NCBI GenBank assembly: GCA_964556185.1
Contig: CAZKVI010000002.1
Location: 9,930 to 73,929, forward strand
Direction: 5' to 3'
Source: an uncultured Methanosarcinales archaeon
GTDB lineage: Archaea; Nanobdellota; Nanobdellia; Woesearchaeales; DSVV01
Length of the DNA stretch: 64,000 bases
In this document: piece by piece, positions 2,610 to 22,293 of the stretch
Position numbering within the stretch: position 1 is the stretch's first letter
Layout: each line of letters starts with the position of its first letter
Notes under the pieces: model-generated
The model's input: the letters and a program-made list of their open reading frames with translations, nothing else
Told to the model about the DNA's origin: nothing
Database searches by the model: none
Position numbers and translations under genes: made by a program

Positions 2610-3630
2610 TGCAAGATTTGTATTAAGAAAGTCAAAAATGCTTGAACAGTATAATTTAATTAATGAATTAGCTGATAAAATCACTTATAGTTTCAAAAGT
2701 AATTATGAAGTTGGTAGGGTTCTAGAGTATGAAACAGATTGTGATTTTAGTGTTCATGCAATCTCTAGATTACCTTTACTTGGAGATCATTCCAGGGTCT
2801 GGTTTTTTGCACAAGCTTGGGATAATGATGAATTATCTTTCTTATTTAGTAAGAAAATAAGGAAGTTTGTCGTCGACAATGAACAAGATTTGAAAGTGTT
2901 GTTATCTTTTATTGAAAATAATGATGTACAAATTGATTTATTACTAAGAATGAAGTTAAAAGAAAACACAATACACACAGGCAAACATTTTGTATTTGGA
3001 ATGTATTCAAAACAAGTTAATGATTACTTGCCTAGATTAAAAGATAATCCAAAAATAAATAGAATAGGTATACATTTCCATAGAAAAACTCAAAACATAA
3101 GTGAATGGTCATTAAAATATGAATTAGAGCAATGCATTAATGAAGAATCTTGGAAATTCATTGATATTGTGAATATTGGTGGTGGTTTGCCTGGGAAATA
3201 CAAAAACTATAGAAGAGAAGTACAAGAACACATCTTTTCAAAGATAAATGAACTAAAAGAGTTTCTAGAAGAGTATAAGATTACATTAATGATTGAACCA
3301 GGAAGATTTATAGCAGGTCCTGCTGTTGAATTGCATACAGAAATTAGAAATATTTATGATAATAATATAATTGTGAATTGTTCTGTTTATAATTCTGCAA
3401 TGGATACTTTTATTTCACATATTAGATTATTAGTTAAAGGTGAGTTAAGTGATGGTCAAGGTTATACAATCAAAGGTTGCACACCTTGTTCAATGGATAT
3501 CTTTCGTTATAAGGTATTTTTAGACAATCCTAAAGTTGGTGATAAATTAATCTTCTTAAATGCAGGAGCTTATAATTTCTCAACTGATTTCTCTGGATTA
3601 GATGAGATGATGACTGAGGTGATCGAATGA
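2593..3630 (+). CDS. PLP-dependent decarboxylase, Orn/Arg/DAP decarboxylase (fold III) family
   Basis: ODC-family motifs: 'YSFKSNYE' (PLP-Lys region, cf. YAVKAN), 'IGGGLPG' (Gly-rich loop), 'EPGRFIAGPA' (cf. EPGRY), 'GCTPCSMDIF' (cf. GPTCDxxD) and 'NAGAYNFS' (cf. GAY). The substrate, ornithine or arginine, cannot be decided from sequence. Confidence 0.7.
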   Translation: MKMRHNARFVLRKSKMLEQYNLINELADKITYSFKSNYEVGRVLEYETDCDFSVHAISRLPLLGDHSRVWFFAQAWDNDELSFLFSKKIRKFVVDNEQDLKVLLSFIENNDVQIDLLLRMKLKENTIHTGKHFVFGMYSKQVNDYLPRLKDNPKINRIGIHFHRKTQNISEWSLKYELEQCINEESWKFIDIVNIGGGLPGKYKNYRREVQEHIFSKINELKEFLEEYKITLMIEPGRFIAGPAVELHTEIRNIYDNNIIVNCSVYNSAMDTFISHIRLLVKGELSDGQGYTIKGCTPCSMDIFRYKVFLDNPKVGDKLIFLNAGAYNFSTDFSGLDEMMTEVIE

Positions 3631-4460
3631 GATTCATGGATTTACCAGAAAAATGGACAGGAGAAGACTCAAATGTGTTTATTTTACCAATAGAATATGA
3701 AAAAGATGTAACTTGGGGTACTGGAGCAGACAAAGGACCTAATGAAATATTGAAATGCTCTTATCACTTAGAACCTTATGATGAGCAATTTAATATTGAT
3801 CCATATGAAGAAGGCATTCATTTACTTTCACCACTAAAATTTCAAGAAGAAACACCAGAGAATGCAATTGAAAAGATTCGTGGGGAAGTTTCTAAGTATA
3901 AAGATAAGTTCTTAATTAGTATTGGTGGTGATCATGCTGTAACTATTGGTGTAGTTAATGGAATGGAAGGAGACTTCTCTGTTTTAGTATTAGATGCACA
4001 TGCTGATTTAAAAGATTCTTGGGAAGGATCTAAATTACATCACTCATGTATTTCAAAAAGAGTTTCTGAGAAACATGATATTGGAATAATTGGAGTTAGA
4101 TCAATGGATTTAGATGAACATGAGTTAGTTGATAATGAGAATATACATATTTTGAAATCTTATGATTATTCTGAAGAGAAAGTTGATGAAATGATTTCGA
4201 AATTGAAAAATAAAGTTTACTTATCTATTGATGTTGATGTATTTGATCCATCATTTATTAGAAACACAGGAACTCCAGAACCAGATGGCTTACAATGGAA
4301 ACAAGTAATCTACATTCTACAGAAATTGTTTGAAAAAAAGAAAGTCATTGGAGTTGACGTAGTTGAATTCGCACCTAAATATAATTACGAAGCAGAAGCA
4401 TTTGCATTGGCAAAGTTAATCTATAAGATTGTAGCTCTTAAAAAGAAATCATCCATATAA
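3627..4460 (+). CDS. speB: agmatinase/arginase-family ureohydrolase
   Basis: Ureohydrolase Mn-binding motifs 'SIGGDHAVT', 'LDAHADL' and 'SIDVDVFDP'. The start overlaps the decarboxylase stop (ATGA). Confidence 0.8.
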   Translation: MRFMDLPEKWTGEDSNVFILPIEYEKDVTWGTGADKGPNEILKCSYHLEPYDEQFNIDPYEEGIHLLSPLKFQEETPENAIEKIRGEVSKYKDKFLISIGGDHAVTIGVVNGMEGDFSVLVLDAHADLKDSWEGSKLHHSCISKRVSEKHDIGIIGVRSMDLDEHELVDNENIHILKSYDYSEEKVDEMISKLKNKVYLSIDVDVFDPSFIRNTGTPEPDGLQWKQVIYILQKLFEKKKVIGVDVVEFAPKYNYEAEAFALAKLIYKIVALKKKSSI

Positions 4461-5027
4461 TCTTCCATAATTATATCCATCTCTGTATTCTCTGTAAAAT
4501 GTAAGTTTATGTTTTCTAACATCATCTCCTGTTATTCCTTTTGGAAATGTGTCTACAACATTTTCATGAAATGGGTAATCATCTATTACTTTACTTCTAT
4601 AAGAATAAAAGATATAATGGTATTTTCCTTCTCCATTATAACCATGGGTGTATCCTAAAGCATATCCTGCTGCTTCAACATCTTCTCTTTGGATCCCAGT
4701 AGTCTCAGTATTTATTCCTAATATGTCATTCTTTGTTGCAGTATAACATTCTTTATATCCTAAGATAAATGCTCCTGTTTCTCCTTTTATAGCTCGTGTA
4801 ATTGGATTAGTTCCAGAAGTTCTAACATAGTTTGCTTTAGTTATGACTGTGTGTGGATTAGAGCCTTTTCCAGCTTTTACATCAATAGTACCATAGGTAC
4901 AACCATTCTCTTTAACACTTTTACTAATGTCGTAATCAACAAAAGAATTCTCTGAATTATATATACCTGCAGAGACAATACTAATTGTAAAAATAAATAT
5001 TATAATTATTGAAATTTGTTTTATCAT
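4449..5027 (-). CDS. secreted hypothetical protein
   Basis: N-terminal hydrophobic signal 'IIIIFIFTISIVSAG'. The mature part is Y/G/T-rich; no motif recognised. Confidence 0.4.
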   Translation of the reverse strand: MIKQISIIIIFIFTISIVSAGIYNSENSFVDYDISKSVKENGCTYGTIDVKAGKGSNPHTVITKANYVRTSGTNPITRAIKGETGAFILGYKECYTATKNDILGINTETTGIQREDVEAAGYALGYTHGYNGEGKYHYIFYSYRSKVIDDYPFHENVVDTFPKGITGDDVRKHKLTFYREYRDGYNYGRLYG

Positions 5028-5336
5028 AGTCTATTTATTGAGATAGTTCTTAATAAAGGTTTTGTTTTAGAAAACTATTTAACTAATTACTTCTATAACT
5101 CACATATGGCATCATTACTATGGATTATATCTGAAATCATTGTTTTCTCAGTATTTTGCTTAGGATTTGCTTTAGGCTTAATTGCAACAATATATTATGG
5201 TATAAAATACTACAAAGACAAAGCATTCAAGAAGAAATTCATTTATTCTTTAGTAATATTCTTATTCTGTTGGTTGGTAGGTGGAGCTGTTATGATGTTA
5301 ATGCTGGCCCTAGATTGGTTAGCTATTGGCAGATAG
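5016..5336 (+). CDS. small membrane protein (2 TM)
   Basis: 106 aa with two long hydrophobic segments. The overlapping +ORF 5156-5377 in another frame is judged spurious. Confidence 0.3.
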   Translation: MFYHSLFIEIVLNKGFVLENYLTNYFYNSHMASLLWIISEIIVFSVFCLGFALGLIATIYYGIKYYKDKAFKKKFIYSLVIFLFCWLVGGAVMMLMLALDWLAIGR

Positions 5337-5380
5337 GTTTATATAGTCTATTTGATTTCTCTACTATGGGTGTTTGATGA

Positions 5381-5989
5381 ATGGTAGAACCAACAGTAAC
5401 AGAAATAGGACCAAGTAGAAGACCATTAGAGGGAAGATTAGATCAAACACATTCTGGTATGGAATTAACAGCTTTATTAAGTGGTATGGATCGTGGGTTT
5501 TTAGGTAGATATCTTAGAAAATTTCCTGAATTAGCTAAAGGTGAAAGAATCGGTGGATTATATGTTCGTAAATTTCCTGTACACACTGGCAGAAAAATTG
5601 GCTTATACACTAACCCCTATAGAATCGGATTTTGGGATAACGATAGGAGGTATGGTAACCACATGGGTGCTGGTTATCGCTTAGGGAGTGTTAGAGGAGT
5701 TCCAAAGGGAGATTATGTAAGTATGTGGTGCCCTCATTTATCAATAGATCATTGTCAAATTTATAGAGACGATGATGGAACAGTTTATATTGAAGATCTC
5801 GGTTCTAGGACAGGAACTTGGGTAGATGGAGAGAGAGTATCTGAGCATAGACAAACAGGAAAAGTTGAATTACATGATGGTGCTGTTATAAATTTAGTTC
5901 CAACATTTCTTACAAGACATTTTCCAGAAAGACTAAGTCCAGAAAGACTAAGTTTTCAAATAGAATTAGTTTATCATGAACTTAAGTAG
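5381..5989 (+). CDS. FHA-domain protein
   Basis: C-terminal FHA signature 'DHCQIY...LGSRTGTWVDGERV...LHDGAVINL', also present in the paralog starting at 5976. R/G-rich, K-poor composition unlike neighbouring genes. Confidence 0.55.
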   Translation: MVEPTVTEIGPSRRPLEGRLDQTHSGMELTALLSGMDRGFLGRYLRKFPELAKGERIGGLYVRKFPVHTGRKIGLYTNPYRIGFWDNDRRYGNHMGAGYRLGSVRGVPKGDYVSMWCPHLSIDHCQIYRDDDGTVYIEDLGSRTGTWVDGERVSEHRQTGKVELHDGAVINLVPTFLTRHFPERLSPERLSFQIELVYHELK

Positions 5990-6386
5990 TGGTGTTAAAA
6001 TGTCACTAACAGATCGATTAGTTATTAGAAAAATGCCAGGTTCTAGAAGACAAGGCACACCAATTTATTTAACTGAATTCCCTTATAGGATTGGATTTAG
6101 AGATAGAAAGAATAGATATGCTAATCATCTTGATTGTAGTTATGGTTCTGATCAATTATCAAGAGATCATTGTGAAATTGTAAGGGGTGGTGAAGGTAAA
6201 TTACATATTAGTGATTTAGGTTCTAGACTTGGTACTTATGTAAATGGTGATCAAATTGATGGTGAAGGAGTTGAATTACATAATGGTGATGTTATTGGTT
6301 TTATTCCAACATGGTGGGGTATTTCAAATATTTGGGGAAGAACACCCTGCAAAGTAGAACTAGTTTATCAAACTCCTTTAGAATAG
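5976..6386 (+). CDS. FHA-domain protein (paralog of 5381-5989)
   Basis: 'PYRIGFRDRKNRYANHLD...LSRDHCEIV...LGSRLGTYVNGDQIDG...LHNGDVIGF' is a typical FHA fold signature (G-R, S-R-x-H, N-G-T/Y-x-V-N-G). It overlaps the upstream paralog by 14 nt. Confidence 0.55.
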   Translation: MNLSSGVKMSLTDRLVIRKMPGSRRQGTPIYLTEFPYRIGFRDRKNRYANHLDCSYGSDQLSRDHCEIVRGGEGKLHISDLGSRLGTYVNGDQIDGEGVELHNGDVIGFIPTWWGISNIWGRTPCKVELVYQTPLE

Positions 6387-6390
6387 AAAA

Positions 6391-6596
6391 GGTTTGGTTG
6401 GTAGTAAACTCATTCTAAGCAAACCGAAGTTTGTCAAAACTCAATCATCCTAAGACTGACAAAGTCAATGCACAAAGATCAACAAGTCGATCAATACGCA
6501 CCTCTTACACCGAAGCATAAGAGATCCACTGAATGTCTGAAGCCAGCTAATACCTCAAGGGTAATTTTGGCCGAGTTGTTTTACCAACCAAAGGAG
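6391..6596 (+). ncRNA. candidate structured ncRNA (~200 nt), class unknown
   Basis: GC-rich island in an AT-rich intergenic gap. An 11-bp perfect terminal helix pairs the 5' end (6393-6403 'tttggttggta') with the 3' end (6583-6593 'taccaaccaaa'). Internal hairpins include 'ctctta...taagag'. Not coding in any long frame. No RNase P, SRP or tRNA consensus recognised. Confidence 0.3.
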
Positions 6597-6687
6597 TATA
6601 CATCATGAACTAGCTACTATTTAATATTTTCTGACTATTTTAGAGTGGAGACAAGATGTTAATAAGAAAAAGAGAAGAAAAAAGAAA

Positions 6688-6703
6688 CTTTCCGTTAGGA
6701 AAG
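6688..6703 (-). terminator. hairpin plus U-tract terminator after metK
   Basis: The minus-strand transcript reads, just after the metK stop, 'CUUUCC-UAAC-GGAAAG' followed by 'UUUCUUUUUUCUUCUCUUUUUCUU'. Confidence 0.4.
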
Positions 6704-6706
6704 TAA

Positions 6707-7924
6707 TTAAATTCCATTATCCAATGGAACTTGTTCACCTGTTCTTTCAGGAGTTCCTAATGGACCTGCTGCTTGTTTCAGAACTTCGACTTTGTCAGTG
6801 TATTCCCATGTAAAGTCAGGATCGTTTCTTCCAAAGTGTCCGTAAGTTGCTGTTTTCTTGTAGATTGGTCTTCTTAATTTAAGATGATTAATCATATCTG
6901 CAGGTTTTAGTGGGAAGTGTTCTCTAACTAGTTCTGCAATCTTCTCTTCTGGAATTTTGTTTGTTCCAAAGCAGTGTGTTAAAACAGAAACTGGTTCTGC
7001 AACACCAATTGCATAAGCTAATTGAACTTCACATTTGTCTGCTAATCCAGCTGCAACAATGTTCTTTGCAATATATCTAGCTGCATATGCTGCTGATCTA
7101 TCTACTTTTGAAGGATCTTTTCCAGAGAAAGCACCGCCACCATGTGAACCATGTCCACCATATGTATCAACAATAATCTTTCTTCCTGTTACTCCTGCGT
7201 CTGCTACTGGTCCACCAATTACAAAAGAACCTGTTGGATTAACAAAGAATTTTGTGTCTGCATCAATCCATTGACCACAAACAGGTTTGATTACTCTTTC
7301 AATTAAGTCAGTTCTTATTTGTTCTAGAGTAACATCTGGGTCATGTTGTGTTGAAACAACTACTGCATCAACTCTTATAGCTTTGCCGTCTTGATATTCA
7401 ACAGTTACTTGAGATTTTGAATCTGGTCTAAGATAAGTTAATTCTTTTGCTTTTCTTATTTTGTCTAGGTGTTGTAATATCTTATGGGCTAATATAATTG
7501 GTAGTGGCATTAGTTCAGGTGTTTCATTTGTTGCATAACCAAACATTAGTCCTTGATCACCTGCACCTTGTTCTTTGTGTAATCCTTCGCCTTCTGTAAC
7601 TCCAATAGAAATATCAGGACTTTGTCCAGATATAGAAACTAAAACACCACAAGTATTCCCATCAAAGCCATATTTTGGATTATCATAACCTGCTTCAACT
7701 ATTGTTTTTCTTGCAATTGTCTGAATGTCTGCAAATGCTGAGGTTGTTACTTCTCCTGCAACAACTACAAAACCTGTTTTTGTTAAACATTCAATTGCAA
7801 CCCTTGAATTAGGATCTTTTTCATAAAGAGCATCTAAAACTGCGTCACTAATCTGGTCACATAGTTTGTCTGGGTGACCTCCACTTACTGATTCTGATGT
7901 AAAAAAGTATTTTCCATTTTTCAT
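6707..7924 (-). CDS. metK: S-adenosylmethionine synthetase, bacterial/eukaryotic type
   Basis: Diagnostic MAT motifs '[13 protein letters not shown]', '[12 protein letters not shown]' and '[27 protein letters not shown]'. About 20 extra C-terminal residues. Confidence 0.9.
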
Positions 7925-8140: not shown

Positions 8141-8302
8141 ATGGGAAAATCTATAGGTCTTACTGCAACTAGACTAAAAAAAAGTAGAGGAACAACAGTT
8201 GATTCAAGTAAGAAAAAATCTGGTAAAAGAAAAAGTGTTAAGATAGGTAGCAAAACTACTTATAGAGATAAAAAAAGAGCAGCAACAGGGAGAAGGTATT
8301 AA
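8141..8302 (+). CDS. small highly basic protein (53 aa), not in supplied ORF track
   Basis: Hand-translated as MGKSIGLTATRLKKSRGTTVDSSKKKSGKRKSVKIGSKTTYRDKKRAATGRRY. It is preceded by a strong SD 'GAGGTGAT' (8128-8135) 5 nt before the ATG. Confidence 0.35.
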   Translation: MGKSIGLTATRLKKSRGTTVDSSKKKSGKRKSVKIGSKTTYRDKKRAATGRRY

Positions 8303-8361
8303 TTCTTCCTTTTTTCTTTCTTTAGAAACTATTATATATTTCTATATTAAACTAAATTAAA

Positions 8362-9699
8362 ATGTTTGAAGAATTCAAAAATAAAAAATGGTATAGACAA
8401 GGTGGTTTAGTTGTTCCATTTTTTGAAAATGCAGCAATGAGTACTATGACTGAAATTGTTGGAAAAGATGGTTATGTTGGAATTTATAGAGCAGAGAAAA
8501 ATCATGGTTATTTTAATAAAGAGAAATTAAAAGAAGGTGCTTATTTTAATATTAAAGAACAATTAAAAAATATTAGATATGTTGATGAATTATATCTAAA
8601 ATGGAAGAAACATGCTTTACAAGCTTTGAAATTAGTTGAGTCTAATGCATCTTTGAAAGAGTTAATTCCTGTTTTAGAAGATTTCTGGAGAACTGCTTGG
8701 GTAATTGAGTTTTATGATGCATATGGCGAACAGATTACAAAAGAGTATTTTAATTTAAGTTCTGATGAGATTTCTGTATTGTTTTCTAGTACTTTTATTC
8801 CAAAAATGCAAGAAGAACATTTGGAATTATTAAAATTAGCTTTAGAAGATGGAAATATTGAAAACCATTACAAAGAGTTTTATTTTATCAAAGCAAGTTG
8901 GGCAGATGCTTCTGAATATTCAATTGATGAGATAAAAGAGAAAGTTAATGGGTTGAAGAAGAAATCTGTGGAAGATATTAAAAAAGAGATTCATAAGATT
9001 GAAGAGCATTATGGTAAAATTAATAAAGAAAAATTAAAGATTGGTGAAAAGTTGAATGAGGATCAGAAAAAGATTGCTTATTTTTTTGAGAAATTAACAG
9101 AATGGAGAGATGAACGTAAAGTTTTTGTGCAAAAATGTAATTGTTATTTGCAAAAGTTTTTGCTTAAATTAGAAAAAGAACACAATATTCCTTTAAAGTA
9201 TTTGAAATTTATTAATTATTATAATTTTGCAGAAGATTCTTCTAGTGAATTAGATTTAGAATTATTGAAAAAAAGACATGAGTTTTGTGTTGATATAATG
9301 CAAGATAAATGGACATATTTACATGGTGATGAAGCTAAGGAATTAGCTAGTATTATTGAGAAAGAGTTTTCTTCTGATGCAAAAGAAGTAAAAGGAATGT
9401 GTGCTTGTCGAGGACATGTTAAAGGAAAAGTCTGTGTTGTTATGAATACAGAGGAATTTTCAGATTTTAAAGAAGGGAATGTATTAGTAACAGCTTGTAC
9501 AAGACCAGAATTTGCTCCTTTAATGAAAAAAGCAGTGGCAATTGTTACAGATGAAGGCGGAATTACCTCACATGCAGCAATTGTTTCAAGAGAATTAAAT
9601 ATTCCATGTGTAATTGGTACACAAAAAGCAACTTCTATATTTAAGAATGGAATGACTGTTGAAGTAGACGCTGATAATGGAATAGTTAAGATAGTTTAA
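8362..9699 (+). CDS. PEP-utilising-enzyme swivel (phosphohistidine) domain protein, PpsA/rifampin-phosphotransferase-like, no ATP-grasp
   Basis: C-terminus 'GMCACRGHVKGKVCVV...IVTDEGGITSHAAIVSRELNIPCVIGT' is the PEP-utilisers mobile-domain signature with the catalytic His. The N-terminal ~330 aa align with the corresponding parts of ORFs 18233 and 20812. Confidence 0.6.
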   Translation: MFEEFKNKKWYRQGGLVVPFFENAAMSTMTEIVGKDGYVGIYRAEKNHGYFNKEKLKEGAYFNIKEQLKNIRYVDELYLKWKKHALQALKLVESNASLKELIPVLEDFWRTAWVIEFYDAYGEQITKEYFNLSSDEISVLFSSTFIPKMQEEHLELLKLALEDGNIENHYKEFYFIKASWADASEYSIDEIKEKVNGLKKKSVEDIKKEIHKIEEHYGKINKEKLKIGEKLNEDQKKIAYFFEKLTEWRDERKVFVQKCNCYLQKFLLKLEKEHNIPLKYLKFINYYNFAEDSSSELDLELLKKRHEFCVDIMQDKWTYLHGDEAKELASIIEKEFSSDAKEVKGMCACRGHVKGKVCVVMNTEEFSDFKEGNVLVTACTRPEFAPLMKKAVAIVTDEGGITSHAAIVSRELNIPCVIGTQKATSIFKNGMTVEVDADNGIVKIV

Positions 9700-11116
9700 T
9701 CTTATCCAAATAAACTTTAATTACTTCTGTTGCTCTAACATCATCTTCATTATAGTCAATAACTAATTGTAATTTATGTTTGTCTCCTGTTTCTAAGAAA
9801 TCATTGTACAATGCAACGCTTTCCATTGCATTGACTTCTTTGTGTTTCCAATTGTAGCCAAGATAATGTGCTATTTCTTTCAAACCTTGTCCATAAGCAG
9901 GGAATGCTACGTATTCTCTAATTATTTTATGTAAATCAACTAATTTATCTAAGATTTCTTCACCAATTCCATATAATTTAATCATGTGTTTTATTCTTGT
10001 TTTTTCATAGTCTCCAAAGTGATAAAGTAAATACTGATCATATTGTTTAAGAAATTCTAAGAATTCTGCAAACATTTTGCCTTCGTCTTCTCGCTTATGG
10101 GCTACAAAAGAATAATATTTGCCATCAACTAATGCGCCAAATAAATAATCTATCTTAATAAGGCCTTCATCATCTGTTCCTTCTAAATCTAAGTAAATAA
10201 TTGTCTTTGCATCTGGCATTGTAACTTTTCCAAATACAATTGGTTTATTTTTTACTAAAGCTTCTGCACTTCGTTGCATTGCTTGGGCTGTTTTGTTTCC
10301 AACACCATCTAATCCTATTAATTTATCAATATCTGTATTAGCAAGATCTTTTAAAGTGTAAAGTCCTATTTTATTTAGTGAAATCTTTCTTTTTAATCCA
10401 ACATTAAGAGCTAAGGATATGTCAGATTGGGAAACTGCCATCTTATTGCAATAAGTTTTCCAAGGGTATGCACATGCATTGTAAGTTGGAGAGGCTTTTC
10501 TCTTGTCGAGAATCTTATTAACACCTTCAATTGCATCTTTAACTTTGTCTTTAAAGTCTGCAAATTTGAAACCAAATGATTTCATTTCTCTATTTATTAT
10601 ATAGAATTTCTCAGGAGTATAACCTTGTATTTTTCCAAGTAAATAATTGTAAAAAGCAGCTTGCATTGCATGTTTCTCTCTAACATTCTTTGCATGTTTT
10701 ATTTCTTTTACAATATAATAATAGTTCCCAAAGTCACTCTTGCCTTTTCTTTTTTCTAAGATATCAAATTCTCCATGTAAGCCTTCTTGTAATAACATTA
10801 ATGGGAAATTGTGTAATGACTCAACACCTTTTTGCATTTCTTCTAATAATTCCATAAAACCTTGTTTTCTGTCTTCTAAATCACAATGTTCTGCTTTTGG
10901 ATATAATTCTTTTACAACATTATCTTCATGCTCATTTCCTTTTTTAAATAATAATTCAAAGTATTCACTTCTAGGATCTTTTAATTTGTCGTCAGCAAAA
11001 TGCCTACAAAAGACAGCAAACGGTGATTCTACAAACAATCTAACATCTGTTCCAGATATTTTTGCTTTTCCATTTGTAAATTTATCATAGATTTCTTTAA
11101 TATCCACTTTATTCAC
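9686..11116 (-). CDS. RecB-family PD-(D/E)xK nuclease fused to HhH and an RNase-H-like 3'-5' exonuclease domain (TM0106-like)
   Basis: N-terminal 'GEFDIL...YYIVKEIKHAK' gives the D...ExK core. 'LIGLDGVGNKTAQAM' is an HhH motif. The C-terminal 'IIYLDLEGTDDEGL...YHFGDYEKTRI...VIDYNEDDV' gives DEDD-type acidic residues. Confidence 0.5.
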   Translation of the reverse strand: MNKVDIKEIYDKFTNGKAKISGTDVRLFVESPFAVFCRHFADDKLKDPRSEYFELLFKKGNEHEDNVVKELYPKAEHCDLEDRKQGFMELLEEMQKGVESLHNFPLMLLQEGLHGEFDILEKRKGKSDFGNYYYIVKEIKHAKNVREKHAMQAAFYNYLLGKIQGYTPEKFYIINREMKSFGFKFADFKDKVKDAIEGVNKILDKRKASPTYNACAYPWKTYCNKMAVSQSDISLALNVGLKRKISLNKIGLYTLKDLANTDIDKLIGLDGVGNKTAQAMQRSAEALVKNKPIVFGKVTMPDAKTIIYLDLEGTDDEGLIKIDYLFGALVDGKYYSFVAHKREDEGKMFAEFLEFLKQYDQYLLYHFGDYEKTRIKHMIKLYGIGEEILDKLVDLHKIIREYVAFPAYGQGLKEIAHYLGYNWKHKEVNAMESVALYNDFLETGDKHKLQLVIDYNEDDVRATEVIKVYLDKIKLS

Positions 11117-11790
11117 TTAGTTAATTTGTTAACAACTGGAAGAAGTTCTTCAATTTTATCAATTGTAAAGTCTGCACCTGAGTTAACTTTTTTACCATAA
11201 CCATATTGAGCAAAACAGGTATGCATACCAAGTGATTTTGCTCCACCAATATCTCTTCTTGGTCTATCACCAACCATTAAACACTCTTCTGGTTTGACTT
11301 TGAATCTCTTCATTGCAACTAAGAAAGGTTTTTTGTCTGGTTTTAATTTTCCTGTGTCTTCTTTTGCAATAACTTCATCGAAAAAGTCATCAAGTTGCAT
11401 ATTACTTAACCTAATCCATGCTTTTAATTTCGGTGCATCTGTTAAAATACCTAATTTTAGATTCTTTTCTTTTAATTTGATTAATGTTTGTTTAGTTTTT
11501 GGATAAGGTCTTAGGAAGCCAGCTCTAACTTTTCTATAAGCAGTAATTCCATAAGCCAAAATTCTATAATCTATTTCTCCGCATTCTTGTTTTAGAAACT
11601 TTTGGAAGATTAAATCATCTTCTAAGCCCTCTTTGTAATATAGTTTGAATAATCTTGATAAAGCTGTTTTCTTCTTCATATTAAGTCCACCATCTATCAT
11701 AGCATCAATAGCTTCTTCGCAGCAGATAGTCTTAAACTTCATAAAATCAATCAATGTGTTGTCAAGATCGAATAATATTACTTTTATCAT
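11113..11790 (-). CDS. HAD-superfamily hydrolase
   Basis: Motif I 'ILFDLDNTLID' at the N-terminus and 'VGDRPRRDIGGA' as motif IV. Confidence 0.7.
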   Translation of the reverse strand: MIKVILFDLDNTLIDFMKFKTICCEEAIDAMIDGGLNMKKKTALSRLFKLYYKEGLEDDLIFQKFLKQECGEIDYRILAYGITAYRKVRAGFLRPYPKTKQTLIKLKEKNLKLGILTDAPKLKAWIRLSNMQLDDFFDEVIAKEDTGKLKPDKKPFLVAMKRFKVKPEECLMVGDRPRRDIGGAKSLGMHTCFAQYGYGKKVNSGADFTIDKIEELLPVVNKLTK

Positions 11791-11821
11791 AGACTATATT
11801 AAAATAAGGTTCTATAAAAAG

Positions 11822-12298
11822 TTATTGGGTGGAAGAATTTAATTCTGAAAGCTGTGTTCTGTAATTCTCATTTAGTTTTCCTAAATATGAGAGAGTTCCT
11901 GGTACTCCTGCCCTGCTCGGAACCCCCATTACACGTCCAGTTGGTTCAAATAAAGTTTCAATAGATCTTGCACCAAGACCTCCAACTAAAGCTCCGAAAC
12001 CTACACCTTGAGGACTTTTTTCAAGTACATATCCAAAAATAGCTCCGATCAATGTTCCAGCTGCTGTTGCATAATTCTTTGCTTTTTTAGCTAAAGGACC
12101 ATATTCATCCCAATACTCATTTAGTGCATTTCCTGAATTGTGCTCTACAATGAATGCACTCATCTCTTCAACATACCCATCAACTATAATAGTTTCAGCA
12201 GGATCTAATGTATAATTATTAAGAATATCTGAAATATCATCTCTTTTATCTACTAACATTCTTCTACAAATATCACTAATTATTTTTGAGTTCCCCAT
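11822..12298 (-). CDS. hypothetical protein
   Basis: 158-aa ORF with a TATA-like 'tttatatatt' about 25 nt upstream. Gly-rich C-terminal half. Confidence 0.35.
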   Translation of the reverse strand: MGNSKIISDICRRMLVDKRDDISDILNNYTLDPAETIIVDGYVEEMSAFIVEHNSGNALNEYWDEYGPLAKKAKNYATAAGTLIGAIFGYVLEKSPQGVGFGALVGGLGARSIETLFEPTGRVMGVPSRAGVPGTLSYLGKLNENYRTQLSELNSSTQ

Positions 12299-12624
12299 GT
12301 GCTATTGCTAAATATATCTAATATATAAATCTTTCTATTATAACGACTTATTAGTGATAAATCACTTCCGAAACATTTAAATATGCCCTATCCACATATA
12401 TATATAAACTAGTATACGTTATCGTATACTAAACAACTAGGCTATTTTAAGTTGTAAAGAGCCACCATTCAAACAAGATTTCGATTTATTGAGTAGGGCC
12501 CAAAGAAGTACCGCGGTAATGCGGAATTTTGTGCAGAGTGGTTTGGTGGTGGTTTCTTTTTTTATCTGTCAAGATAAAAAAATGCCTGAAAATCTTGATT
12601 TTTATTGTCTTTTTTTCTATAAGA

Positions 12625-13284
12625 TTAATGATATACTACATTTTCTGGTATAGAATCATCTAAATTAGAACCTCGAGAAAGAGCTAAATTCGGTTGTTCA
12701 TCATTGTCTCGATCTCCTCTAAAGTCCTTTATTCTAAGATCTATTTCTCTAGCTGCTCTATTTAGGAATTGTCTCATATCATTTACTTTTGATTGTAATG
12801 GAGCTCCTAAATAGTTTATTGTTACAGTATGTCTATGGTCTGAAATATCTACATCAACTTCAATGTCTCCTTGAAAATGATCTTCTAAGGTGTAGTTTGT
12901 TAAAGCTTCAATAGCAATATCAAATGGAGCCATACTATCTGGTAAATATGATTCTATTCTTCTATAATAATTAAGTTTTCCAACAACAACACCTCTTCCT
13001 TCTGGTCGTGTTTGAATTTCCATTGATTCTAAATATGGTCCATCACCAAGATCACATTCTCCTGTTTCAAAAACCCATGTTTTTCTTCTAGTAGCATATT
13101 CATTTCGCCATAATACAGGATGTTGTTTAAACCATGATATATACTTTAAATTACCCAAATACTCTCCTTCTCTACACTCTAAATAATTATCAACAGTATC
13201 TCTAAGAGTTGCTTTTAAGAGCATTCCAGCTCTTTTTAGAAAGCCAGGTCTTTTAGATTCTTGAATAGTTTTATCAATAGTCAT
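12625..13284 (-). CDS. hypothetical protein (R-rich, compositionally atypical)
   Basis: 219-aa ORF downstream of aIF2-gamma. Higher GC and Arg-rich; no motif recognised. Confidence 0.35.
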   Translation of the reverse strand: MTIDKTIQESKRPGFLKRAGMLLKATLRDTVDNYLECREGEYLGNLKYISWFKQHPVLWRNEYATRRKTWVFETGECDLGDGPYLESMEIQTRPEGRGVVVGKLNYYRRIESYLPDSMAPFDIAIEALTNYTLEDHFQGDIEVDVDISDHRHTVTINYLGAPLQSKVNDMRQFLNRAAREIDLRIKDFRGDRDNDEQPNLALSRGSNLDDSIPENVVYH

Positions 13285-13346
13285 ATATAATTTAGATGTA
13301 AAATCTAGTATATAAAGCTTTTGGTATTAGTTACTGGTTGGGGGTA

Positions 13347-14561
13347 TCATTCCTTTAACAAACCATAACCAATTAATCTAAATCTATTTACAACTCTTCT
13401 AGAAATAGTTACTCTAGCTCCAACTTCGCAACAAACTGGTAATTTTAATTTACATTTAATTAAATCCTTACTTAATTCTGTAACAACTCCAACAGTTGCA
13501 GCAGAATTAACATTTAACATTAAGGGTTCCATCTTTTTAATTGGTTCTACAGTAAGTTCTTCTGCACTACCCACAACTCTTTCAAGTAAATGTGTTTCTA
13601 AGGTTAATTCATATCTTGTTTCTGGTAATTTATCAGGTAAACCTACAACTCCACCTGTTAATGCATCTGATTTAACTATTGCAGGATCTAATTCTGTTAA
13701 TAATGCAATGCTTCCACCTGGTCCAACTTCTTTTACAGCTTTTCCACCAGTCATTAAAGAAGTTATTTTTGCTTTTATTGGTTTGAAAACCTTAACATTC
13801 TTTTCTTCTACACCATATCCTGGTTTTATTTCAATATCATCTCCAACTTTTAATTTTCCTTGAATAAGACTACCGCCAAGAACACCACCTTTAATATTAT
13901 TAATTTCTGATCCAGGTTTGTTAATATCAAAGCTTCTTGCAATATACATCATTGGATCTAATTTAGGATCTCTTTTTGGAGTTGGTATATGTGTTTCAAT
14001 TGCTTCAATAACTTTTCCAACATTAATGTTTTGTCTTGCAGATAAAGGAATAATAGGAGCATCTTCATAAGGAGTTCCTTTTAGAAATTCTTTTATTTGT
14101 TCGTGGTTTTTTAATGCTCTTTCTTTATCAACTAAATCAACTTTATTTTGTAGAACAATAACTTTCTCAACACCTAAGATTTGTAAAGCTTGTAAATGTT
14201 CTCTTGTTTGAGGTTGTGGACAGGCTTCATTTGCTGCCACTAATAGTAGTGCACCGTCGATAATTGTAGTTCCTGCTAACATTGTAGCCATTAAACTTTC
14301 GTGTCCAGGTGCGTCAACAAAAGAAACTTTTCTTAGAAGTTTTGCAGTTTTTGTTTTTTTAGCTGTGAAAGTTTTTTTATCTTTGTAGAAAGTAGCGTCA
14401 GCATAACCAAGTCTTATTGTAATTCCTCTTTTGATTTCTTCAGAGTGTGTATCAGTCCATTTCCCAGATAATTGTTCAGTTAGTGTAGTCTTACCATGGT
14501 CTACATGTCCAACTAAACCAATGTTAATTTCTGGTTGGATTATTTCTTTTGCTTTTGCCAC
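13347..14561 (-). CDS. translation initiation factor 2 gamma subunit (aIF2-gamma)
   Basis: 'NIGLVGHVDHGKTTL' P-loop, 'VDAPGHE', 'NKVDL' and the zinc-ribbon Cys pair. It sits directly downstream of rps6e, the conserved archaeal gene order. Confidence 0.9.
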   Translation of the reverse strand: MAKAKEIIQPEINIGLVGHVDHGKTTLTEQLSGKWTDTHSEEIKRGITIRLGYADATFYKDKKTFTAKKTKTAKLLRKVSFVDAPGHESLMATMLAGTTIIDGALLLVAANEACPQPQTREHLQALQILGVEKVIVLQNKVDLVDKERALKNHEQIKEFLKGTPYEDAPIIPLSARQNINVGKVIEAIETHIPTPKRDPKLDPMMYIARSFDINKPGSEINNIKGGVLGGSLIQGKLKVGDDIEIKPGYGVEEKNVKVFKPIKAKITSLMTGGKAVKEVGPGGSIALLTELDPAIVKSDALTGGVVGLPDKLPETRYELTLETHLLERVVGSAEELTVEPIKKMEPLMLNVNSAATVGVVTELSKDLIKCKLKLPVCCEVGARVTISRRVVNRFRLIGYGLLKE

Positions 14562-14569
14562 TGTTTATT

Positions 14570-15328: not shown

Positions 15329-15426
15329 CCCGAACCTGCAATCATTTTGTATGATTTCCCTAATTTATAGGCGGCTCAGCTTTGATAATAGGCAAAAACT
15401 GCTGATTCTTTATAAATGTTTAGGTA

Positions 15427-16467: not shown

Positions 16468-16546
16468 GTATGTGGAGTATTGTAAGTATTAATATTGTTT
16501 GTGATTTGTAGTAATATTTTTAAATTAACTAATATATTCTAGTAAT

Positions 16547-17392: not shown

Positions 17393-17428
17393 GAATATTA
17401 ATATACTAATTCTACTTACCTTCGAAAT

Positions 17429-18127: not shown

Positions 18128-18232
18128 ATCTTTCACATAAACTAAGTAAAAATACCCTCAATTAGTAACAACGAAGGAGAACATATAAAAATAAGCTTAC
18201 TTTACCTTATTATTTAGGGGGCTAATTTTGGG

Positions 18233-20815
18233 GTGTTGAAGTTGTCTAATGAAGAAAAATGGCTTACTTGGCTCTATGCTAATTCAAGTCCTGGTGGATC
18301 TGTACCTTTCCTGACTTTAGAGATATTTAGACGATCTGCTTTATCAGGTCATGATATGGAAAGAGAGTTTGGTAGACCAGTTGGAATGTTACATCGTTGG
18401 TCAAATGGAAGATCATGGAAATATTTTCTAAGAGAAGATGTAGAAGCAGTAGGAAGAGTTTTTTTAGAAAGAATAATAGAAGATCCTGAATTTCTAGAAC
18501 TTCATTATACTGAAGCAGAAAGACGAGTTAATGTTCTAAGACAATCTTCAATGAGGTTTGCTCAAATTGATTTTAGTGGAGCAAATGAGGTTGGTTTTAG
18601 GGGCGCATATTCAATTGTTGCAAATAATTATTGGTCATTGGGTTTTTATGGTGTTATGCCAATTTTATTTGGAGGATTTATTTTAGAACCAGAAATTAAT
18701 AAGTATCTTTTGTCATTGGGTTTAGATTCTGAGAAATTTGAAGATGTTTTAGCTACATTTACAAAACCAAGGGTTCCAACCCCATTGCATCATTGGGAAA
18801 CAAGTTTAGATGAATTGGTTTTTGATATTAAAGCAAGTCCTACACTTAGGACTACTTTTGATGGATCTCCAAGTGAAATATTGAGAGGTATTGAAGGAAG
18901 TGAATTCTATAATAAACTTGAAGAGCACATAAAAGAATTTCAATGGGTTTTCTATAAATGGACAGGTCCAATAAGAGATACTGAGTTTTTTGTAAGTGAA
19001 ATTAAAAGAAGATTAACTACGAAAACATCACAAGCAGAGTCTGACTTAGATGCGATTCTTGCAAAAGAAGAAAGATTAATTAGTGAGTTAGGTATTGATG
19101 AAACACATAGAAGATATTTAGGATCATTAAGGACTTTAGTAGAGATGAAAAATCTCAAAGCAGAAGGAATGTCTTATGGTGCTTATTGTCTTCATCCATT
19201 TAGAACTGAGTTGTGTGCACGTTACGGAATAAGACCAGAAGATACAAGATATTTGTTAGAAGAAGATATTCATAGATTATTAGTTAAAGGAGATTTAGAT
19301 TTAGAAAAACATAGAGCTAGAAAAGATGAGTTTTTATGGGTTGTTGAGAATTGTAGAGAAAGAATGTATGTTGGTAGTGAAGTTGAAGATATAAGAGCAA
19401 GAGAAGAGCCAAAACACGAAACAAACTTTCTTGGAACTGTAGCATACCCAGGAGAAGCAGTTGGTACTGCTAGAGTTGTTGTAGATTATGAAACTTATAA
19501 TGGTTTATTTAGTAAAGGAGATATTTTAGTTGCACCAAGAACAACAGATAGTTATTTTCCTTTATTTCCATTAGCAGGCGCAATTATAACTTCTGAAGGA
19601 GGTTTAACATCTCATGCAGCAACTATTGCAAGAGAATATAAAATACCAACAATTATTGGAGTAACTGGAATACATACAAGACTTCCAGACAATGCTATAC
19701 TTAATGTATGTGCAGATCCATCTAATTTAGAAGGAGGATCTATTGATAGAATTGTTACTGGTCCTATTAGAAAACACACAACAAGAAAATTTCCTGAAGA
19801 ACAAAGAAGAACAAGAATAAATAGACAACCAATGGATAGGGTAGGAGGTCCAGAAATAGTGAATTTTACAGATGTGATGTATGGAGAACCAAATAGATCA
19901 TTACTAGGCACAAAAGCAACTAATCAGATATTGTGTTGTCGTATGCTTAATGTCCCAGATGGGTTTGTTGTTACAACTGTTTTGTATCGGAAGTTTCTTG
20001 AAGAATCAAGTTTAATGAGTAAAATAAGAGAATTACCAGATAGATTAGAAAGAATCGGAACAGATCCTCGAGATATTAGGAGGTTATCAGCAGAATATAG
20101 GCATGCAATTCTTGATACAGATGTTCATGGTTTATTTGACCCGGTTTTTCATGCTTATAAGGAATTAGGAAGTCCTAGTACTGCAACAAGATCAAGTGCA
20201 CTTTATGAAGATATGGTAAGAAGAGAAGGAGAACAAGGAAGATCTTTTGCAGGAATATTTGATACTTTTACGAATTTACGAGATAGAAGAGAAATTGTTT
20301 CTGGGATTAAAAGATGTTGGGCTTCTTTATTTTCACCAAGAGCACTTTCTTATACTATAACTACTGGTTTAGATCCATCAAGTAATCAAATGGCTGTTCT
20401 TATACAAGAAATGTTGAATGGTGTTAGTTCAGGAGTTATGTATACAGATGTTGATGGACATATTTTAATTGAAGCATGTGAAGGATTATGTGAACCATTA
20501 GTTGCAGGAGAAATAACTCCAACAACTTATGTTTTAGACCAGGATTCTTTATATGTTGCTCATGTTGTTCCAAGTAATCAAAGTTTTGCAAGTTATATTA
20601 ATGCAGACGGGGTTCTTGATAGAAGAGATCCATCAAGACCAAAGGTTTTAAGTCCAAAAGAGTTATTTGAATTAGGAAAGATTGCTAGTAAAATAAGAAA
20701 TTATTTTGGTCCTCGTCAAGATATTGAATTTACTATTGCTGGAAATATTATTCATGTAACGCAAAATAGAGATATTACAACAGAAGTATATTTACCTGCA
20801 GGTGTAGCAAGATGA
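18233..20815 (+). CDS. permuted PEP-synthase-like dikinase homolog: helical N-domain + swivel phosphohistidine domain + C-terminal PpsA-type ATP-grasp (PPDK_N) domain
   Basis: Mid-protein 'AYPGEAVGTARVV...IITSEGGLTSHAATIAREYKIPTIIGVTG' is the swivel His domain. C-terminal 'GTKATNQ...VPDGFVVTT...SSALYEDM...SFAGIFDTFTNL...IKRCWASLFSPRALSYTI...MAVLIQEML...GVMYT' matches the ATP-grasp nucleotide-binding domain that is N-terminal in PpsA. GTG start at 18233; first in-frame ATG is ~40 codons in. No PEP-binding TIM-barrel. Confidence 0.65.
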   Translation: MLKLSNEEKWLTWLYANSSPGGSVPFLTLEIFRRSALSGHDMEREFGRPVGMLHRWSNGRSWKYFLREDVEAVGRVFLERIIEDPEFLELHYTEAERRVNVLRQSSMRFAQIDFSGANEVGFRGAYSIVANNYWSLGFYGVMPILFGGFILEPEINKYLLSLGLDSEKFEDVLATFTKPRVPTPLHHWETSLDELVFDIKASPTLRTTFDGSPSEILRGIEGSEFYNKLEEHIKEFQWVFYKWTGPIRDTEFFVSEIKRRLTTKTSQAESDLDAILAKEERLISELGIDETHRRYLGSLRTLVEMKNLKAEGMSYGAYCLHPFRTELCARYGIRPEDTRYLLEEDIHRLLVKGDLDLEKHRARKDEFLWVVENCRERMYVGSEVEDIRAREEPKHETNFLGTVAYPGEAVGTARVVVDYETYNGLFSKGDILVAPRTTDSYFPLFPLAGAIITSEGGLTSHAATIAREYKIPTIIGVTGIHTRLPDNAILNVCADPSNLEGGSIDRIVTGPIRKHTTRKFPEEQRRTRINRQPMDRVGGPEIVNFTDVMYGEPNRSLLGTKATNQILCCRMLNVPDGFVVTTVLYRKFLEESSLMSKIRELPDRLERIGTDPRDIRRLSAEYRHAILDTDVHGLFDPVFHAYKELGSPSTATRSSALYEDMVRREGEQGRSFAGIFDTFTNLRDRREIVSGIKRCWASLFSPRALSYTITTGLDPSSNQMAVLIQEMLNGVSSGVMYTDVDGHILIEACEGLCEPLVAGEITPTTYVLDQDSLYVAHVVPSNQSFASYINADGVLDRRDPSRPKVLSPKELFELGKIASKIRNYFGPRQDIEFTIAGNIIHVTQNRDITTEVYLPAGVAR

Positions 20816-22293
20816 GATGGAAATATGTTTTACATAGGGATATGAGTGTATTATTTGAGTCTCTTGTACAGAGAGGTATAAGAGATTATACAGCAGAAGT
20901 TTTGGGACTAGATGGTGTTGTTTTAAGTGGTCGTAAAATAGATCATGGAGATATTTATCATGATGAAAGAGAATTAGAACAACTTAGATTAAAAGTTAGA
21001 GCTAAAGTAGATCAAGGAAACTATTTAGAAGAACTTGTTATAGCTTGTGAAAAGGAATGTGAAGAACTAGTTGCTTTTAGTAAAGGAGACAAGGTTGGAA
21101 GTGATGCAGTAGTTCTTGGAGCTTACTTTGATAAAGTTTGTAGAGTTATGCCTTTCTTACCTGTGTTTCCTGTTGTTGTTGAGGGAATTGTTGCTGAACA
21201 AATGGGTCAAATATTATCAAAATATGCAACACCTGAACATCCTGTTAGAGAACTTAGAGAAACTTTTAGTACTCCTCATATGAAGTTTGCAGTACAAAAA
21301 GAACAAGAGTCATTATATAGAATTGCAGGAGCTATACAAAATTCTAGGGAATTAACTAAGTTATTTCAAGAAAAACAAGGTCAAGAATTGTTTGAAGCAT
21401 TAGGTGAAACTTGGTTAGCTACATATTTACAAAATTATGTTGATAGGTATGCTTGGATTGAAACAAGACATTTTAAAGGAGAATTATGGACACCAGAAAT
21501 TGTAATTAATAGAATTAAAGGAGTTCTTAATGAAGATTGTATGGGTAGATATAGGGTATTACTTTCATCATGGGGAGTATCTCAAAGAAGGATTGTAGAA
21601 TTATATGGTGAATTGGGTTTTTTAAGAGAAGATAAAAAAAGAATAGATACATTACGTAAATTAATTTTATTAAAAACACAAAGAAAGGATGCAATTAATC
21701 GAGCAGCTTATCATATGCATCCGGTGTTTTCTAAAGTAGCAGATGCTAGTGGTTTAGAAGTAAGTGATTTGGTTTATTTAGAACCCCATGAATTTGTTTC
21801 TCTTGCACAAGATCCTTCTTTGGTAGAAGATTATCAAAAAAACATTGAAGCTAGGAAACAAGGTTTTGCTTTAATAATGTATGACGGAGATATTAGATTA
21901 TTTGAAGATTATGAAAATGAAGTAGAAACTCCAATGGTTTATTCTGGAGAAGATGAAGTTAGGGGACAGAGGGCTTATCCAGGAGAAGTTACTGGATTAG
22001 CAAGAGTTGTTAGAAATCAATCTCAAGTTGCTTCTTTATCTGGAGCAGATTTAATGGTTTGTATGAATATCCATCCAGATTATGTAGTTGAATTAAGAAG
22101 AATTAGTGAAGAAGGTGCTTGGCAAGGTGGCATTATAACAGATGAAGGAGGAATTGCAAGTCATGCTTCTCAATTATCAAGAGAATTTGGATTGCCATGT
22201 ATTATAGGAACAGGTAATGCAACTAGTGTTTTTCAAACAGGAGATAATGCATATCTTAATGCTACAGAAGGTTATGCAAGAAAGTTGGATTAG
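20812..22293 (+). CDS. PEP-utilising swivel (phosphohistidine) domain protein, paralog of 8362 and 18233, no ATP-grasp
   Basis: C-terminal 'RAYPGEVTGLARVV...IITDEGGIASHASQLSREFGLPCIIGTG'. The region upstream of the swivel domain aligns with the other two paralogs. It overlaps 18233-20815 by 4 nt. Confidence 0.6.
   Translation: MRWKYVLHRDMSVLFESLVQRGIRDYTAEVLGLDGVVLSGRKIDHGDIYHDERELEQLRLKVRAKVDQGNYLEELVIACEKECEELVAFSKGDKVGSDAVVLGAYFDKVCRVMPFLPVFPVVVEGIVAEQMGQILSKYATPEHPVRELRETFSTPHMKFAVQKEQESLYRIAGAIQNSRELTKLFQEKQGQELFEALGETWLATYLQNYVDRYAWIETRHFKGELWTPEIVINRIKGVLNEDCMGRYRVLLSSWGVSQRRIVELYGELGFLREDKKRIDTLRKLILLKTQRKDAINRAAYHMHPVFSKVADASGLEVSDLVYLEPHEFVSLAQDPSLVEDYQKNIEARKQGFALIMYDGDIRLFEDYENEVETPMVYSGEDEVRGQRAYPGEVTGLARVVRNQSQVASLSGADLMVCMNIHPDYVVELRRISEEGAWQGGIITDEGGIASHASQLSREFGLPCIIGTGNATSVFQTGDNAYLNATEGYARKLD

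Follow-up and report, generated by a model that had tools for sequence, protein, structure and literature searches.

Rifampin phosphotransferase (RPH) is a single-chain enzyme that consists of an N-terminal ATP-grasp domain, a helical domain that binds rifampin and a swivel domain with a histidine that shuttles between the other two; the phosphate in transfer is encircled by Arg666, Glu667, Lys670 and Gln337 (PMC4844700; the enzyme from Listeria, RPH-Lm, is represented by the PDB entries 5FBS, 5FBT, 5FBU and 5HV1). HpeHI, CreHI and PpsAB are split dikinases from ordinary bacteria that act on phenolic compounds and are encoded by adjacent gene pairs in a 1:1 ratio: the H or A subunit combines a substrate-binding domain with a swivel domain, the histidine of which is essential, and lacks an ATP-grasp domain, and a separate ATP-grasp protein serves it in trans, with no stable complex between the two (PMC12167813). 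The 64-kb stretch of the contig CAZKVI010000002.1 analyzed here (hereinafter, the window) contains a gene, denoted A, that encodes a protein with the composition of such an H subunit, and two further genes, B and C, that encode related modules; as in RPH, a helical substrate-binding domain precedes the swivel histidine in A and C. Unlike RPH with its N-terminal ATP-grasp domain, A and C have none, and that of B is C-terminal. The most plausible reading, to which we assign a probability of about 0.6, is that gene A encodes the acceptor half (HpeH type) of an ATP-dependent dikinase of the RPH kind that is charged in trans, with the ATP-grasp domain of B as the best candidate for the donor.

The only Pfam domain identified in the gene A product is the swivel domain PF00391 (residues 369-440), which scores 88.6 bits in A, 67.2 bits in B and 50.1 bits in C, with the cut-off at 23.1 bits. 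The swivel motif of A, GGITSHAAIVSRELNIPCVIGT, includes His404, and the catalytic histidine motif G-G-x-[TA]-[SC]-H is present in all three proteins (His404 in A, His461 in B and His451 in C). The best sequence match of the A swivel is the archaeal phosphoenolpyruvate (PEP) synthase swivel (8a8e, E = 1e-27), so that this domain is very similar in A and in the PEP synthase/pyruvate phosphate dikinase group. The PEP/pyruvate-binding TIM barrel (PF02896) is detected in none of the three proteins in a Pfam scan, and the PEP synthase equivalog model NF005057 assigns 129 bits to A and 217 bits to B against a cut-off of 598. The PpsA-like model PRK08296 from NCBIfam matches A with 102.5 bits (cut-off 578) and only within residues 336-445. 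The prodigiosin ligases PigC, HapC and RedH, in which phosphorylation activates the substrate, also show the RPH-type architecture; unlike A, PigC-type ligases are single chains of about 880 amino acids with an ATP-grasp domain of their own. The NCBIfam PigC model extends beyond the swivel of A (residues 172-444) with 71 bits against a cut-off of 1300; the PigC and PRK06241 matches start at residue 172 or 196 and are far below the respective cut-offs. Genes similar to A are routinely labelled "phosphoenolpyruvate synthase", "PEP-utilizing enzyme" or rifampin-resistance-like, and none of these labels holds at the membership thresholds.

The region upstream of the swivel was compared among the three proteins with hhalign, using family alignments from which the swivel had been removed (64 sequences for the A family, 8 for C and 4 for B, including orthologs read from the loci L004 and L005). 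The N-domains match with a probability of 99.1% for A and B (E = 8e-19, 309 columns), 98.6% for A and C (E = 1e-15, 298 columns) and 98.4% for B and C (E = 5e-15, 238 columns). Controls with reversed profiles yield about 0.2% (E about 0.3), which excludes helical composition as the cause of the match. A phmmer search started with residues 1-335 of A as a single sequence misses both B and C, a match at 1e-7 is obtained between the B and C N-domains, and full-length BLASTP alignments of the three proteins reach upstream of the swivel but are driven by the swivel domain. Pairwise search is thus weak here, and the homology of the N-domains is detectable only at the profile level.

Together with the PF00391 matches, these results bear out the original prediction, made from the DNA of the window, that the proteins encoded at 8362, 18233 and 20812 have helical and swivel domains in common and that gene A is an unlinked paralog of the other two. 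The three peptides quoted as aligning all fall in the same hhalign columns, and the proposed check, an alignment of the N-domains with their homologs, is significant with hhalign profiles. The pre-swivel motif that had been read from the three proteins exists as well, although its spelling has to be amended to G-x-x-A-[YC]-x-G-x-x-x-G-x-x-[RC]-V-V, with two residues after the first glycine; given that this stretch also aligns with the matching part of an archaeal PEP synthase, LKGLGASPGIGAGRVVVI, the motif is not specific to A, B and C. Judging from the profile comparisons, A, B and C are paralogs that represent three ancient subfamilies of one large family of proteins from bacteria of the Candidate Phyla Radiation (CPR) as well as archaea of the DPANN group.

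The AlphaFold2 model of A (pLDDT 94.3, pTM 0.88) and the AlphaFold model of C (pLDDT 86.9) show an identical order of secondary structure elements. Foldseek searches of the PDB started from either model place the six Listeria RPH-Lm entries at the top and identify these as the only full-length matches (E = 1e-11 to 4e-10, 457-550 columns and TMq 0.47-0.53 for A; E = 1e-15 to 2e-11 and 540-568 columns for C). The other significant hits have E values of at least 4e-7, and all of them are enzymes with a swivel domain (pyruvate kinase, pyruvate phosphate dikinase, Enzyme I). On the evidence of these models, the predicted fold of the N-domain of A and C is that of the RPH rifampin-binding domain, located directly before the swivel.

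The A family shows no variation at Q13, R252 and K253, and at least 90% conservation of R249; among 186 modules from other genomes, the positions of His404, R252, K253 and D250 are conserved in 99%, 82%, 75% and 65%, respectively. The spacing of the R249-D250-x-R252-K253 block of A matches that of the Arg-Glu-x-x-Lys block of RPH. We infer from the motif spacing that Q13 is the counterpart of RPH Gln337 and that R249-D250 and R252-K253 correspond to the RPH block, so that these residues would form the phosphotransfer pocket.

The gene A protein is an ordinary member of its family. Among 8,000 candidates, more than 2,800 are relatives of A at E <= 1e-5, most of them proteins of 450-510 amino acids from CPR bacteria and DPANN archaea that align end to end with 28-35% identity; the nearest named homolog comes from Candidatus Woesearchaeota. 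A scan of species-representative genomes (79 loci, six-frame search with our own hidden Markov models for the three N-domains, the swivel and the ATP-grasp domain) reveals 73 loci with at least one module. At least three modules within 20 kb are present in 31 of these and at least five in 18, with a maximum of nine; exactly one ATP-grasp is found in 29 of the 73 loci and a second one in none. A typical array comprises 7-9 tandem module genes and one stand-alone ATP-grasp gene for a protein of 310-350 amino acids, located at one end of the array or inside it, e.g., in L014 (Nealsonbacteria), L016, L019 (Iainarchaeum), L021, L023 (Woesearchaeota) and L036. An independent source, precomputed Pfam annotation, shows seven PEP-utilizers genes in L086 and a PPDK_N gene followed by five PEP-utilizers genes, plus three HAD genes, in L088. 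In the latter, archaeal locus (9055-20216), the HAD phosphatase genes are interleaved and co-oriented, and several of the genes overlap at their ends. Orthologs aside, the relatives nearest to A are encoded inside arrays (L010, L007, L008, L016 and L023, with one ATP-grasp each in L016 and L023).

The same rule holds for covalent fusions. A single open reading frame (ORF) for 3,768 amino acids in L040 (3647-14950, Woesearchaeota) contains one PPDK_N and eight PEP-utilizers domains according to Pfam, and P0192 (2,648 amino acids) is a fusion of one ATP-grasp with six swivel domains. A word-index search with the N-domain of B returned one hit; a full HMMER scan with B was therefore used instead and identifies 27,124 cluster representatives at E <= 0.001, including ordinary PEP synthases and pyruvate phosphate dikinases. 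Among the best 149 of these 27,124, one ATP-grasp is combined with 2-6 swivel domains in 97, the permuted single-module order of B (swivel before ATP-grasp) is seen in 14, and two ATP-grasps occur in none. The fusions to UDP-GlcNAc 2-epimerase annotated in some homologs appear to be spurious: in P0008, a two-module protein, the PF02350 match overlaps the swivel, and no stretch of L040 passes by itself. No accessory gene is strongly recurrent in the arrays (genes for Pta, cytidylyltransferase-like and histidine phosphatase-like proteins in 4 of 36 loci each, HAD in 3), so the gene neighborhoods provide no clue to the substrate. Full-text searches of the literature retrieve no description of the arrays or of a rule of one ATP-grasp for many modules, and the organization of this family appears to be an undescribed variant of the dikinases of the RPH/HpeHI type. 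By domain content, the three modules and the single ATP-grasp of the window amount to a minimal form of the arrays and giant fusions, with one ATP-grasp for up to 8-9 modules, that are seen elsewhere.

The best hit of 181 of the 186 modules is in another genome, and the median identity within arrays is 31%, which indicates that the array paralogs are old. This age bears on the suggestion, in keeping with RPH-Lm being the closest solved structure, that A is a component of an antibiotic-inactivating, rifamycin-type phosphotransferase. In CPR genomes, rph-like hits have been scored as resistance-like genes (PMC8651080), and phosphotransferase activity on other substrates is expected to persist in the distant clades of this superfamily (PMC4844700). 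We consider this explanation very unlikely: the pattern of best hits points to old, conserved specificities, the rifamycin equivalog model NF041857 from NCBIfam covers only the swivel of A with 65.1 bits against a cut-off of 999, the N-domain profile misses RPH by sequence, so that the rifampin-contacting residues are unalignable, and no PADLOC hit is obtained for A.

Under the preferred reading, an ATP-grasp domain would bind ATP and phosphorylate His404 in the swivel of A, the swivel would swing back onto the helical N-domain of the same protein, and the phosphoryl group would be passed to a substrate bound in the vicinity of Gln13 and of the R249-D250...R252-K253 block. AMP, inorganic phosphate and the phosphorylated substrate would be the net products, i.e., the stoichiometry would be that of a dikinase. 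Because A has no ATP-grasp domain, the first step would proceed in trans; that A most likely needs an ATP-grasp follows from the logic of gene fusion and from the precedent of HpeHI acting in trans. The C-terminal domain of B, which would charge A, the swivel of B itself and that of C, is the best candidate because it is the only ATP-grasp visible in the window, where a six-frame scan of the 64 kb finds no other. An attempt to type this domain by identity was non-discriminating, as it is about 30% identical to the ATP-grasps of the arrays and of PEP synthases alike. The domain order of B is that of an H-then-I fusion, permuted relative to RPH, with colinear orthologs P0177-P0179 and P0181; B looks like an H gene fused with the ATP-grasp gene behind it, and the same order is represented by separate genes in L076 and L083. 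Unlike the HpeHI-type pairs, there is one ATP-grasp for three modules in the window and for up to nine elsewhere, and A is unlinked from its candidate donor: the ATP-grasp of B is encoded 8.5 kb downstream, and no PPDK_N gene, stand-alone or otherwise, adjoins A.

The original prediction already raised the idea that A, B and C are one system encoded at two loci, in which all three would draw on the ATP-grasp of B in trans. This idea is plausible and receives comparative support, while the service in trans would be a deduction from such comparisons. The characterized two-component dikinases function in trans (PMC12167813), and none of the arrays and fusions among the 73 loci and 149 cluster representatives, with up to nine modules, has a second ATP-grasp. 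Moreover, in Woesearchaeota GCA_016187565.1, the 10 kb around a 7-module array contain no ATP-grasp and the B-C cassette is located on a different contig, a split that supports the option of one system at two loci.

Several observations weigh against the assignment of A to an RPH-like dikinase charged by B. The N-domain is not detectably similar in sequence to the RPH or PpsA-type domains: a search of PDB sequences with its profile returns chance hits only (E >= 0.056), and hhalign against the proteins P0173 and P0175, which have the RPH architecture, gives no signal, so the link to RPH is structural only. The mapping of the A residues onto RPH follows motif spacing, not a structural alignment. 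B has K-N-L-K-A in place of the block and C has K-T-Q-R-K, which keeps the R-K pair, and neither contains WYRQGG; with A retaining every family-invariant residue and the other two a partial set, A is the canonical member and B and C are divergent ones. The docking of the B ATP-grasp on the A swivel is something we infer; being fused, this domain may prefer its own swivel in cis, and the genome, of which only 64 kb were seen, could encode a PEP synthase or a stand-alone ATP-grasp elsewhere. Orphan modules might function without any ATP-grasp: in about 20 of the 73 loci, a lone module lacks an ATP-grasp within 10 kb, and HpeH alone catalyzes slow, ATP-independent phosphotransfer between small molecules (PMC12167813). 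Finally, the loci were picked by similarity to gene A, a possible source of sampling bias, and some taxonomic labels of metagenome-assembled genomes are doubtful.

Some of these points converge on a different explanation, that A is independent of B and either relies on another ATP-grasp protein or PEP synthase encoded outside the window or is an ATP-independent transphosphorylase, in which His404 would relay phosphate from a phosphorylated donor metabolite to an acceptor. Such a reading is compatible with the orphan modules and with the similarity of the A swivel to that of PEP synthase, as well as with the apparent organization of gene A as a transcription unit of its own, with a TATA-like box at 8331-8352, 10-30 bp upstream of the start, and no Shine-Dalgarno sequence. 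The transfer of phosphate from 4-phosphoacetophenone to acetovanillone by HpeH in the absence of HpeI and ATP is a direct precedent, but its rate is very low, 2.7 nmol/min/mg (PMC12167813). Furthermore, the family-wide pattern of one ATP-grasp and many modules, including covalent fusions, argues for dependence on an ATP-grasp, and the 64 kb contain no second one. Independence of A from B thus seems rather unlikely.

A role of the modules as sensors or regulators, in which His404 would, by its phosphorylation state, signal the status of ATP or a ligand and regulate a partner, has also been considered. Three family members, P0102, P0120 and P0082, carry N-terminal helix-turn-helix domains of the Cro/C1 or ArsR type, so that some modules may be regulators, and parts of the conserved pocket motif are lost in B and C. 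In A itself, however, a Pfam scan detects no DNA-binding or output domain and every family-invariant pocket residue is kept, and all characterized relatives are enzymes; for A, a regulatory function is therefore highly doubtful, and the dikinase reading is preferred. The coordinates of the three genes and of the residues discussed are collected in Table 1.

Table 1. Genes A, B and C of the window, with their domains and key residues
Feature	Position	Strand	Description
Gene A	8362..9699	+	445 aa, ATG start; H-type module (helical substrate-binding domain and swivel phosphohistidine domain), without ATP-grasp
Gene A N-domain (aa 1-335)	8362..9366	+	Predicted fold like the RPH rifampin-binding domain; no Pfam model
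Gln13 in WYRQGG motif	8398..8400	+	Invariant column in the A-family alignments A1 and A2
W248-R-D-E-R-K253 motif	9103..9120	+	Candidate equivalent of RPH Arg666-Glu667...Lys670
Gene A swivel phosphohistidine domain	9367..9696	+	PF00391 (aa 369-440) and the strand before it; best match 8a8e
His404 (T-S-H)	9571..9573	+	Predicted phosphate-carrying histidine
Gene B	18233..20815	+	860 aa: N-domain 1-390, swivel ~406-500, PPDK_N ATP-grasp 557-850
Gene B His461	19613-19615	+	Swivel histidine
Gene C	20812..22293	+	493 aa, second H-type module: N-terminal region and swivel
Gene C His451	22162-22164	+	Swivel histidine

Genes B and C share 4 bp (ATGA), in which the stop of B and the start of C overlap. 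The original prediction set A, with a composition like that of the bulk genome, against B and C as foreign-like genes, and proposed, as an alternative to one system at two loci, that an old resident family member had been joined by a recently acquired operon. The difference between the copies is real. With a GC content of 28.1%, A lies below B (33.4%, Fisher p = 7.5e-4) and C (32.8%, Fisher p = 6.9e-3), the lysine and arginine counts differ with p = 6e-13 (A-B) and 3e-7 (A-C), and the per-gene codon and GC statistics suggested as a check thus distinguish the copies significantly. In comparison with the 60 other genes of the window, the only outlying value is the arginine content of B (z = +2.0), and the genes that flank the B-C pair vary between distant genomes. 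The description of B and C as foreign-like does not survive closer analysis. The GC difference sits at codon positions 1 and 2 (p = 6e-7 and 2e-5), and the GC content at the third codon position (GC3) runs in the opposite direction, with 0.166 in A, 0.121 in B and 0.113 in C. Within the distribution of the 63 genes in the window, none of the three stands out in GC, with z-scores of -1.1, +0.7 and +0.5 for A, B and C. AGA accounts for 69-80% of the arginine codons in all three genes; by synonymous-codon distance to the rest of the window, B and C rank 4th and 9th most typical among the 26 long genes, and A ranks 21st. A lysine-poor, arginine-rich profile is found in 14 of the 63 genes, those with K/(K+R) below 0.5; across the window, this ratio increases with GC3 (rho +0.60) and decreases with GC (rho -0.61). 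K/(K+R) is 0.81-0.83 in the close orthologs of A and 0.30-0.62 in the B and C families, i.e., the amino acid bias is a family trait. With no foreign signal at the codon level and a bias common to the orthologs, the distinction between native and foreign copies fails.

The conservation of gene order leads to the same conclusion. The unit of a swivel and PPDK_N protein of 840-860 amino acids followed by a swivel protein of 475-496 amino acids recurs in four further DPANN contexts (L004 from Woesearchaeota GCA_016187565.1, L005/L006, L089 and L090/L091). In the close relative L089, the order NurA-NadC-232aa-B-C is kept; relative to the window, the identity is 85% for B and C and 92-96% for the genes beside them, and in L003 it is 75% for A and 64-88% for its flanks. 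Judging from these values, both loci look vertically inherited. Only B and C make up the conserved unit, and the flanking gene for a 232-aa protein recurs solely in L089. The B-C pair is not the product of a recent duplication, as arrays in other genomes encode relatives that are closer to B and C (121 and 115 bits) than the two are to each other (88.6 bits). Taken together, codon usage, the bias shared with orthologs and the synteny in L089 lead us to reject a recent horizontal transfer of the B-C pair, and the notion of an old resident joined by a foreign operon is extremely improbable.

The window represents an archaeal contig of 31% GC with genes for aIF2-gamma, S6e and NurA, and the JGI contig Ga0118720_1000586 is identical to it over this region. 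The contig further encodes MetK, in which Pfam identifies the three S-AdoMet_synt domains. Upstream of gene A, a cluster of genes for deoxyhypusine synthase, ornithine/arginine decarboxylase and arginase/agmatinase, followed by two adjacent FHA-domain proteins, is located at 1662-4460, 5381-6386 and 6707-7924. An ORF for a very basic protein of 53 amino acids (MGKSIGLTATRLKK...) at 8141-8302 on the plus strand, 60 bp upstream of gene A, is preceded by a TATA-like box and a strong Shine-Dalgarno sequence (GAGGTGA) and ends in a T-rich terminator. On the related contig L003, there are 13 small basic ORFs of 49-72 amino acids without Pfam hits (4539-6936 and 9088-9273), 12 of them in tandem, including the ortholog of this ORF at 6754-6936.

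On the opposite strand (9686-11116), convergent with gene A and overlapping its stop codon by 14 bp, lies a gene for a 476-aa protein with a Cas4-like nuclease region, a helix-hairpin-helix and an RNase_H_2 domain (PF13482), which adjoins A in L003 as well; a HAD gene at 11113-11790, also on the opposite strand, is two genes away from gene A. The closest relative of A, P0002 from L003 (10001-11821, 75% identity), is read as a single ORF with an N-terminal Asparaginase_N domain that adjoins a second asparaginase gene and directly follows a protein kinase gene. This context may hint at a variant in which phosphorylation is coupled to ammonia transfer or amidation.

Next to the B-C pair, the 232-aa protein encoded directly upstream of B (17429-18127, plus strand) has no Pfam, NCBIfam or PADLOC hit; it is 65% identical in the close relative L089 and is absent beside B-C in more distant genomes. 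A role in anti-phage defence was considered and rejected, as neither this gene nor A, B or C yields a PADLOC hit. Downstream of C (22390-23463, plus strand), a gene with a GC3 of 0.05, the minimum of the window, encodes a protein that has a hydrophobic N-terminus and PD40/TolB-like beta-propeller repeats; this gene is not found beside B-C in any other context examined.

The broader picture suggested by the comparison of these loci is a branched, ATP-driven phosphorelay in CPR bacteria and in DPANN archaea, in which one ATP-grasp would charge many swivel histidine modules, each with an anciently diverged pocket, and of which the window would be the minimal version, with three modules distributed over two loci and B serving A in trans. 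Such a relay would be a functional analog of the phosphotransferase system (PTS), built from parts of rifampin phosphotransferase. Enzyme I of the PTS has a homologous swivel histidine domain, and in both cases one general phosphoryl donor would supply many substrate-specific modules. The PTS relies on PEP, HPr and EII, whereas in the proposed relay an ATP-grasp would act as the donor, with a swivel histidine in every module, so that the comparison is by analogy only. We offer this joint interpretation tentatively and rate its chances as somewhat below even. If it is correct, the service of many substrate-specific phosphohistidine modules by a single ATP-binding domain would be a new arrangement among dikinases, for which the window, with three modules and one ATP-grasp, provides a simple test case. 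The module arrays are concentrated in organisms with minimal genomes, where retained genes are expected to matter, and would then offer a testable entry into the metabolism, salvage or detoxification of CPR and DPANN symbionts.

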